Shown here in pieces: positions 4,201 through 4,964 of a DNA stretch of 8,262 bases. The stretch is from the IMG/VR virus record IMGVR_UViG_2529292873_000013; one strand, written 5' to 3'. The notes under the pieces are model-generated. The model did no database searches. It was not told where the DNA came from and worked only from the letters and a program-made list of their open reading frames with translations. The position numbers and the translations under genes are program-made. How positions within the stretch are numbered: the stretch's first letter is position 1; each line of letters starts with the position of its first letter. This DNA comes from a virus (Duplodnaviria > Heunggongvirae > Uroviricota > Caudoviricetes).

Positions 4201-4368
4201 TCAAGCATTATGCAGGCTGTTTCTTTTTATCACCGGCCACAGCAATACCACAATGCCGCAGACCAGCCCCCCATCCGCCAGCACCGACATGATTCTGCTG
4301 GTGAAATCCACCATCACCACCAGAAACAGCAGGAGTGCAGCCACAGCCAGACGCAGTTTTACCGTCAC
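4201..4368 (-). CDS. small two-helix membrane protein, 55 aa, translationally coupled to the upstream TerB-like frame
   Basis: GTG at 4366..4368 overlaps the TerB-like TGA (GTGA). Translation VTVKLRLAVAALLLFLVVMVDFTSRIMSVLADGGLVCGIVVLLWPVIKRNSLHNA, stop at 4201..4203, GGAG 8 nt upstream. Not in the track, whose ORF 4208..4495 is a different frame. Confidence 0.35.
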   Translation of the reverse strand: MTVKLRLAVAALLLFLVVMVDFTSRIMSVLADGGLVCGIVVLLWPVIKRNSLHNA

Positions 4369-4815
4369 AGGTGATTCTCCAGACGAAGCCCCAGAACACC
4401 GGCAATCTCTTCCAGCACCTTGCGCTCTTCCGGCTCAATTTCGCCGTCTGCCTCCGCAATGGCCACCGCCACATCCAGCACATCTTCCGCTTCACGCGTA
4501 TCGTGTTTCACATCCTCGATCTCACGTAACGCCGCACGACGACCAATTTTAAAGTTCGTATCCAGCTGACCGATAATGGTTGCGCTAATCGCATTAATTT
4601 CTGACGTAAACGCGGACAGCGCTGGCTGATTACGCAGTACCTGTTCGATCTTCGCTTTCTAGGAAGCCTCACATTCACCATCTGCACAGGCCACCAGGTA
4701 TGCGGCGTTAATCACCGCCTGTGCCAGATCGCGTTTCTCAAACTTTCCTTTTTCCGGTTAACGTGACACACCAATAACTCTTGTCGAAAAAGCCAGCAAG
4801 CTGAAAGACCGGTAT
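4365..4815 (-). pseudogene. TerB-family (tellurite-resistance TerB-like) gene, disrupted by an in-frame TAG and at least one frameshift
   Basis: Minus frame from 4757 to 4368 reads ...KFEKRDLAQAVINAAYLVACADGECEAS*KAKIEQVLRNQPALSAFTSEINAISATIIGQLDTNFKIGRRAALREIEDVKHDTREAEDVLDVAVAIAEADGEIEPEERKVLEEIAGVLGLRLENHL, showing the two acidic-Gly repeats typical of TerB. TAG at 4659..4661. An upstream piece (...QLAGFFDKSYWCVTLTGKRK) is in a different frame that stops at 4738..4740; the shift is at a T5 run at 4749..4753. No usable start codon found. Confidence 0.5.
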
Positions 4816-4860
4816 TCACAACCACCAGCGCGTTTACTGTACTGGCGTGATTTCAGTCAT

Positions 4861-4884
4861 AAAAAAACCCGCCTGGCGACGGGT
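4861..4884 (-). terminator. tR'-like intrinsic terminator just downstream of the late promoter
   Basis: Minus-strand RNA: hairpin cccgucgccaggcggg followed by U7 (plus A7 at 4861..4867), about 45 nt downstream of the -10. Confidence 0.6.
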
Positions 4885-4931
4885 GTAAAAAATCTTCTAA
4901 CGTCAGGCATAAAACGCCCATCGTTAGGGCA

Positions 4932-4959
4932 AATTTACCACAGATTCGGGAAAAATCAA
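4932..4959 (-). promoter_or_regulatory. pR'-like late promoter (site of Q action)
   Basis: Minus-strand -35 TTGATT (plus 4954..4959), 16-bp spacer, -10 TAAATT (plus 4932..4937), starting immediately after the Q stop codon. TAAATT is the -10 I recall for lambda pR'. Confidence 0.55.
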
Positions 4960-4964
4960 CAAAG

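Follow-up and report, generated by a model that had tools for sequence, protein, structure and literature searches.

What occupies the toxin position in a prophage whose late region is laid out like that of a Shiga toxin (Stx) phage but which has no stx, and how much of it still encodes a product? The stretch in question, IMG/VR virus record IMGVR_UViG_2529292873_000013 (8,262 nt, the whole of which we call the window), raises this question in its central part, where an earlier note made from the sequence alone had placed a broken TerB-like gene and a coupled 55-aa membrane open reading frame (ORF), described as a cargo pair of unknown function under control of the late antiterminator Q. Our answer, to which we give a probability of about 0.88, is that a non-Stx lambdoid prophage of the E. 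coli O55:H7/O157:H7 type has here, in the cargo slot of its late region, a decayed tciA-tciB cassette. The locus is a decayed copy of a common, named and routinely annotated cassette, and as such was already known.

The cargo slot and the position of stx2AB

We took as the slot positions 3887..4964 of the window (1078 nt) and compared it with the corresponding region of Stx2 phages. Slot positions 1-221 are 99.5% identical to the Stx2a phage Stx2_EH1910 (LC567834), and positions 77-221 about 90% identical to many other Stx2 phages. In Stx2_EH1910 the same Q and leader are followed by a 65-aa ORF, a DNA methylase gene, three tRNA genes, stx2A, stx2B, the small RNA (sRNA) STnc100, an iraM-like gene and nanS-p. 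Intact tci loci, those of O157:H7 strain H6437 and phages JLK-2012 and Evi, run from tRNAs through a terminator hairpin to tciA, tciB, STnc100, a terminator and nanS-p; phage PPyecE_EH1910 has the same tciA-tciB-STnc100-nanS-p order, with a ParE/helix-turn-helix (HTH) toxin-antitoxin pair upstream in place of the tRNAs.

When the Stx2a phage is aligned with an intact tci locus, the two are homologous across the tRNAs and hairpin up to a point 43 nt short of stx2A and 122 nt short of tciA. Homology returns within STnc100, at a distance of 87 nt from the end of stx2B and 16 nt from that of tciB; tciAB therefore takes exactly the position of stx2AB. The left border is the terminator hairpin that follows the tRNA cluster, common to the Stx2a phage and the intact tci loci and found at 3844..3863 in locus L011, 3794..3813 in L003 and about 7935..7960 in L005. 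On the right, STnc100 is found after stx2B in the Stx2a phage (153.8 bits) and after tciB in five intact loci, and it thus marks the other border of the slot. By these alignments, the interval from the tRNA-terminator block to STnc100 holds either stx2AB or tciAB, as alternative cassettes. The coincidence of their boundaries in intact relatives bears out the toxin-slot position proposed in the earlier note.

The window itself shares with an Stx-phage late region the Q gene, the pR'-like promoter and the early terminator on one side, and on the other the succession STnc100, nanS-p, holin and SAR endolysin, the last frameshifted. Between tR' and nanS-p, where tRNAs and stxAB would stand, lie the tciA remnant and tciB; a tRNA scan of the window found no tRNA genes, and stx is absent.

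Inactivation of tciA

The TerB-like frame (4742..4365), with its internal stop replaced by E, matches Pfam TerB (PF05099) at 47.3 bits (cutoff 24.4; E 3e-12), and the assignment to this family made in the earlier note therefore holds. An intact tciA allele scores 60.2 bits against the same profile, matches phrog_632 at E 3.8e-69 and aligns over residues 15-137 with the solved TerB structure, PDB 2JXU (E 3.1e-7). Alignment with intact alleles (phages JLK-2012, PPyecE_EH1910 and Evi, and O157:H7 strain H6437) shows a gene of 432 nt and 143 aa, of which the window retains codons 19-143; homology begins only at codon 18/19, position 4745/4742. The window thus lacks a complete ORF of about 143 aa that begins at a start codon of its own.

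Two lesions account for the break that had been noticed in this frame. One is a deletion that fuses the post-terminator leader to tciA codon 18, so that codons 1-17, the start included, are lost. The other is an in-frame TAG at 4661..4659, at codon 46, where the intact alleles have GAG (E46). The source of the deletion can be traced in PPyecE_EH1910, in which slot positions 77-221 lie at 779-922 of the locus and positions 219-905 at 3501-4187. Between the two pieces are the 65-aa ORF, the DNA methylase gene, the ParE/HTH pair and the 5' end of tciA; as the pieces stand about 2.6 kb apart there, the window is a deletion derivative. The junction, at an AAAG microhomology (4746..4743), lies between the ribosome-binding region that served the lost 65-aa ORF and tciA codon 18. 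The deletion took with it the ribosome-binding site of tciA, its start codon and the conserved basic N-terminus, MFGIFKKK..RRAA. With its start lost by deletion and a TAG at codon 46, tciA is a pseudogene.

Its inactivation appears to be recent, since only 5 synonymous and 2 non-synonymous differences separate the remnant from an intact O157 allele. Between intact tciA alleles, the ratio of non-synonymous to synonymous divergence (dN/dS) is 0.014-0.073, with dS up to 0.67, values that clearly point to purifying selection on the intact gene. The sole piece of tciA still open is a 48-aa C-terminal ORF (4511..4365, GTG start) that comprises the last third of the TerB domain. It matches phrog_3920 end to end (E 1.6e-34), and this family, annotated as of unknown function, is most likely made up of ORFs predicted in fragments of tciA pseudogenes.

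The earlier note had allowed that the region might instead be coding in another frame. Among the plus-strand and other-frame ORFs of 3872..4825, a 166-aa antisense ORF (4052..4552) and six smaller ones, none has a meaningful Pfam or PHROG match, and they were therefore rejected as coding. Other assignments for the proteins were no more rewarding. A search for defence systems (PADLOC) gave for TciA only a 14.6-bit match to PDC-S48, which is not meaningful, and for TciB none. NCBIfam yielded for TciA only sub-threshold partial matches, to the TerB-like segment of DjlA and to YmfL, and for TciB no match. A match of tciA positions 13-87 to an O104:H4 "DUF3927 domain-containing protein" proved to be to a small pseudogene fragment among insertion sequence elements, and is uninformative.

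The small membrane protein TciB

The ORF that follows (4368..4201) is intact. It matches Pfam DUF3927 (PF13064) over residues 3-51 at 60.5 bits (cutoff 25) and phrog_1470 at E 1.5e-29. Its hydrophobic segments, residues 5-21 (Kyte-Doolittle maximum 2.8) and 29-47 (2.4), are joined by a DFTS loop in which D21, F22 and S24 do not vary among 8 sequences from phages and prophages; 14 columns are invariant across the phages aligned, P1, Pollock and 434 among them. TciB is accordingly predicted to form a two-helix membrane hairpin. Its GTG start overlaps the tciA stop codon as GTGA, and both the overlap and the two-helix character agree with the description in the earlier note. A Shine-Dalgarno sequence of its own, GGAG at 4380..4377, lies 8 nt before the GTG, so that translation of the dead upstream tciA is not strictly needed.

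A G6 run within tciB (about 4268..4273, minus strand) is G7 in strain 377323_2f, where it results in an altered C-terminus and a 53-aa variant (WP_001431886.1); the run is likely to be a slippage-prone site.

Organization of the window

Every gene of the window lies on the minus strand. The features of the slot and its immediate neighbours are as follows.

4965..5786, minus strand: late antiterminator gene Q, quuQ type (Pfam PF03589, match to PDB 7UBM, RefSeq WP_000762928.1)
4932..4959, minus strand: pR'-like late promoter (alignment with lambda pR')
4861..4925, minus strand: predicted short pR'-tR' transcript, about 65 nt (pause element, terminator scan, folding)
4744..4888, minus strand: leader common to Stx2 phages (sequence identity to them)
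4743..4746, minus strand: deletion junction with AAAG microhomology (comparison with PPyecE_EH1910)
4365..4742, minus strand: tciA remnant, TerB family (Pfam TerB, intact-allele alignments, pseudogene flag of the NCBI annotation pipeline, PGAP)
4201..4368, minus strand: tciB, 55-aa DUF3927 ORF (Pfam PF13064, phrog_1470, RefSeq WP_000216629.1)
4027..4193, minus strand: STnc100-family sRNA homologue (Rfam RF02076)
3973..3999, minus strand: intrinsic terminator-like hairpin with T8 (terminator scan)
1949..3886, minus strand: NanS-p-type sialate O-acetylesterase gene, 645 aa (Pfam, RefSeq WP_000023170.1)

The 645-aa esterase comprises DUF1737, SASA and DUF6645 domains (Pfam) and is named "SASA family carbohydrate esterase" in RefSeq. 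Beyond it lies a pinholin lysis cassette made up of an S21-type holin gene (Pfam P21 holin match) and a DUF1327 gene, then a SAR-type lysozyme gene. Of the downstream flank described in the earlier note, the NanS-p-type esterase and the holin stand as stated; the SAR endolysin is present too, but frameshifted in this window.

Sequence identity is unevenly distributed. Over 1250..5750, a stretch that includes the slot, identity to E. coli O157:H7 strain 493/89 is 100%; in the flanks, 1..1250 and 5750..8262, it falls to about 97%, and there are many 1-nt deletions. These deletions frameshift the genes for lysozyme (at 453 and 141), DUF968 (at 6468 and 7123..7168) and RusA (at 6152 and 5862); they could be due to prophage decay, mosaic recombination or sequencing error. 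The best match to the full window among 5426 complete E. coli genomes is 98.1%.

A few further elements were seen in passing. A hok/sok-type type I toxin-antitoxin element lies at 7810..7984 (minus strand; Rfam sok, 116 bits) with an ORF at 7660..7872 (minus strand); in both 493/89 and EDL933 the corresponding position carries a RefSeq hokD annotation. Just downstream of it, 7571..7652 (minus strand) gives a weak, sub-threshold match (27.1 bits against a gathering score of 50; E 0.01) to IsrK, an sRNA of Salmonella Gifsy-1. On the plus strand, 3863..4006, overlapping the terminator and the start of nanS-p, is annotated by PGAP as a partial "hypothetical protein" pseudogene in all seven of the genomes sampled below; the corresponding 47-aa ORF has no family match and is probably spurious.

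Late promoter, early terminator and STnc100

Q (822 nt, 273 aa) matches Pfam Antiterm at 168 bits and the solved structure of lambda Q, PDB 7UBM, at E 9e-41; it belongs to the lambda-Q family, has a DnaJ-like zinc-finger insertion and is called "antitermination protein" in RefSeq. The promoter that follows consists of a -35 TTGATT (4959..4954), a 16-nt spacer and a TG-extended -10 TAAATT (4937..4932). Direct alignment shows the -10 hexamer, and the pause element AACGAT at 4925..4920, to be identical to those of lambda pR'. A simple consensus promoter scan did not list this promoter, because only 8 of 12 positions match the consensus; with so weak a match, its identification as pR' rests on the homology to lambda. 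A tR'-like terminator comprising a G+C-rich hairpin (4884..4867) and T7 was found by the terminator scan. A short pR'-tR' RNA of about 65 nt is predicted, from about 4925 to 4861, both its start and its length being read from the sequence; the stretch folds into two hairpins at -22.7 kcal/mol (z -3.6 against shuffled controls). The Q gene, the pR'-like promoter with its TAAATT and the short terminator are thus in place as first described.

Intact tciA has a conserved leader of about 120 nt upstream, after the terminator hairpin. A separate sigma-70 promoter, of the kind that would make tciA a moron expressed in the lysogen, was sought by consensus scan in two intact loci and none was found; as the same scan misses the real pR', this negative is weak.

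The sRNA homologue was overlooked in the earlier note. It starts 8 nt past the tciB stop, precedes nanS-p and matches RF02076 over the full length with 101.6 bits, where the gathering score is 47. The minimum-free-energy fold of this copy is unremarkable (z -1.3). The terminator between the sRNA homologue and nanS-p, a hairpin at 3999..3981 of 8 pairs (7 of them G-C) with T8, is at the same place in loci L011 and L003. STnc100 has been proposed to share ancestry with the PasD sRNAs, and TerB, Q and sialate esterase are among the neighbours of Pas sRNAs (bioRxiv 10.64898/2026.05.13.724894). In PPyecE_EH1910 (L006), the interval from tciB to nanS-p also holds a match to the anti-GcvB sRNA AgvB (4245..4306, minus strand; 96.5 bits), immediately beyond STnc100; at the corresponding position of the window AgvB has no match.

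Distribution and annotation of tciAB

A search of 3887..4964 against complete E. coli genomes, of the kind suggested in the earlier note, showed strain 493/89 to match the slot with 100% identity. At least 80% of the slot is present in one piece in 456 of the 5426 complete E. coli genomes, and tciAB DNA, at a coverage of at least 80% and with broken copies counted, in 803 (about 15%), often in several copies. We sampled the annotations of seven: 493/89, 377323_2f, EDL933, CV261, O55:H7 RM12579, plasmid pDCE7-1 and FDAARGOS_293. In every one, EDL933 included, PGAP records a TerB pseudogene with "internal stop" and a DUF3927 family protein. The same deletion junction and TAG are found in seven independently sequenced complete genomes.

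Both families are placed by PHROG in its "moron" category, phrog_632 as "tellurite resistance" and phrog_1470 as "TciB-like". Phage records carry the names as well: tciA and tciB in JLK-2012, "TciA/TerB-like protein" in PPyecE_EH1910. The names were first given in P1, where TciA was named from homology, and tciA, tciB and tciC of P1 were found by CRISPR interference to be non-essential (PMC10695390). Adjacent tciA and tciB occur also in P7, Klebsiella phages, the lambdoid phage Fostie and Pollock, an N4-like phage that is strictly lytic; the tciA stop and the tciB start overlap or abut in P1, Pollock, Fostie, JLK-2012, PPyecE_EH1910, Evi and O157 H6437. The genes therefore have names, PHROG families of their own and routine PGAP labels, and the novelty implied by "cargo pair of unknown function" does not survive. 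Nor, in this window, does the pair: one member has lost its start, has acquired a nonsense codon and is flagged by NCBI as a pseudogene in the genomes sampled.

Alternative explanations

Could the TerB-like gene still work, either through read-through or suppression of the TAG from a non-canonical start, or as the 48-aa fragment from the GTG at 4511, and so maintain a working TerB/TciB pair? The near-identity of the remnant to an intact O157 allele might be taken to suggest this, as might the fact that the fragment is open and its equivalents are called often enough to form phrog_3920. Low divergence, however, fits recent inactivation equally well. The native ribosome-binding site, start and basic N-terminus are gone; from the upstream in-frame TAA to the TAG there is no ATG, GTG or TTG except one GTG 17 codons before the TAG; and the fragment holds only the end of the TerB domain, in a family that most likely arose from pseudogene pieces. 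We consider a working gene very unlikely. Still less credence, indeed next to none, is due to the idea that the breakage is an assembly or sequencing artefact and that tciA is intact in the real genome. The single-base deletions outside 1250..5750 could point to uneven sequence quality, but the slot lies within the stretch identical to 493/89, its lesions are a 2.6-kb deletion and a base substitution rather than homopolymer indels, and the presence of the same lesions in seven independent complete genomes excludes an artefact for the slot.

A more substantial alternative is that what counts in the slot is RNA, namely the STnc100/EcOnc27-like sRNA with perhaps the pR'-tR' RNA, and that tciB is a passenger on its way to decay. 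Of all elements STnc100 alone is retained in each version of the slot that we examined, Stx2a and tciAB alike; the Hfq-binding sRNA EcOnc27 is reported to overlap STnc100 downstream of stx2B, with single-nucleotide polymorphisms there that predict haemolytic uraemic syndrome (PMC12711010); outer-membrane vesicles of Shiga-toxin-producing E. coli have been found to contain STnc100 (PMC12370729); and a frameshifted tciB exists, in 377323_2f. On the other hand, an identical intact TciB (WP_000216629.1) is kept by six of the seven sampled genomes, the DUF3927 family is conserved over unrelated phage types, and the STnc100 copy here is known from sequence alone and folds unremarkably. We regard this explanation as possible but on balance doubtful.

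The reading we prefer, a cargo slot with a decayed tciA-tciB cassette, has points to answer in its turn. No complete genome matches the flanks of the window at more than about 97% identity, and these flanks contain 1-nt indels. With tciB frameshifted in one of the seven sampled genomes, it too may be decaying. In phages 434 and 2B8 a different gene sits upstream of tciB, so that a strict TciA-TciB partnership is not proven; the 247-aa protein encoded there in 434 has no Pfam domain and gives no hint of alternative partners. Q-dependence, the transcription start and the 65-nt RNA are what we infer from homology with lambda. Finally, the literature searched mentions the genes as annotations; it holds no tellurite, colicin or phage phenotype of TciA or TciB, and no functional study.

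Proposed expression and role

On the model of the lambda and Stx paradigms, pR' would fire constitutively in the lysogen and RNA polymerase would mostly stop at the tR' hairpin about 65 nt on, releasing an RNA like 6S or StxS, the latter being the short counterpart in Stx phages of lambda 6S RNA (PMC7547250). Upon induction, Q would allow polymerase to pass both tR' and the terminator after STnc100, so that the tciA remnant, tciB and STnc100 would be transcribed together with nanS-p and the lysis genes. The slot output that could still be expressed would be only TciB and possibly the sRNA.

Where the pair is intact, a soluble TciA of TerB fold would probably work at the inner membrane with the TciB hairpin. 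Its likely role, by analogy with the phenotypes of the Ter operon, would be that of a non-essential accessory in lytic growth, serving envelope or membrane protection, or exclusion of colicins or superinfecting phages. That the strictly lytic Pollock has tciAB speaks for a role in the infected cell and not in lysogenic conversion only. A bolder proposal would make tciAB the functional counterpart of stx, a widespread cargo under strong purifying selection that aids the induced or infected cell, for example by stabilizing membranes, tuning the timing of lysis or excluding colicins or superinfecting phages; here tciB and STnc100 would still be a working Q-dependent output, and TciB would act without TciA. 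We think this improbable.

The window by itself carries little weight, consisting as it does of an annotated pseudogene and an annotated DUF3927 gene that are also present in the reference enterohaemorrhagic E. coli genome EDL933. The more general point, a modest one, is that stx2AB and tciAB are interchangeable cassettes between the same tRNA-terminator block and the STnc100 sRNA. About 15% of complete E. coli genomes hold tciAB DNA, as do P1 and a strictly lytic N4-like phage, and its intact alleles are under strong purifying selection; in the biology of lambdoid late-region cargo, the function of the intact pair is a gap, small but real.

Comparison with known systems

The closest known system is tciA-tciB(-tciC) of P1 and its copies elsewhere, in which members of the same two families follow one another in the same arrangement, the tciA stop touching or overlapping the tciB start. 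In lambdoid phages the copies are located where the cassette of the window is, between Q and the lysis genes. Identity between the P1 and window copies is only about 38% for TciA and about 50% for TciB, and the tciC of P1 is absent here. With TerB of the Klebsiella ter operon (PDB 2JXU), TciA shares the conserved acidic positions of the TerB domain. Unlike the ter operon gene, tciA has no terZACDEF neighbours, its partner is a 55-aa membrane hairpin and not TerC, and its name comes from homology only.

Set beside the stx2AB cassette of Stx2_EH1910, the window has the same type of Q, the same pR'-tR'-leader and the same right flank of STnc100 and nanS-p; its cargo is unrelated to the toxin, and the tRNAs and the rest of the left flank have been deleted. 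The promoter region resembles the sources of lambda 6S and StxS RNAs (PMC7547250) in its lambda-family Q, its TAAATT and AACGAT elements and a terminator close downstream, but the RNA predicted here is about 65 nt, that of lambda 194 nt, and the sequence past the pause element is unrelated to lambda's. The STnc100 homologue, like PasD2/STnc100 (bioRxiv 10.64898/2026.05.13.724894), lies directly upstream of a sialate esterase gene; it differs from the Stx2a-phage copy in following tciB rather than stx2B, and in its lower score (101.6 as against 153.8 bits).

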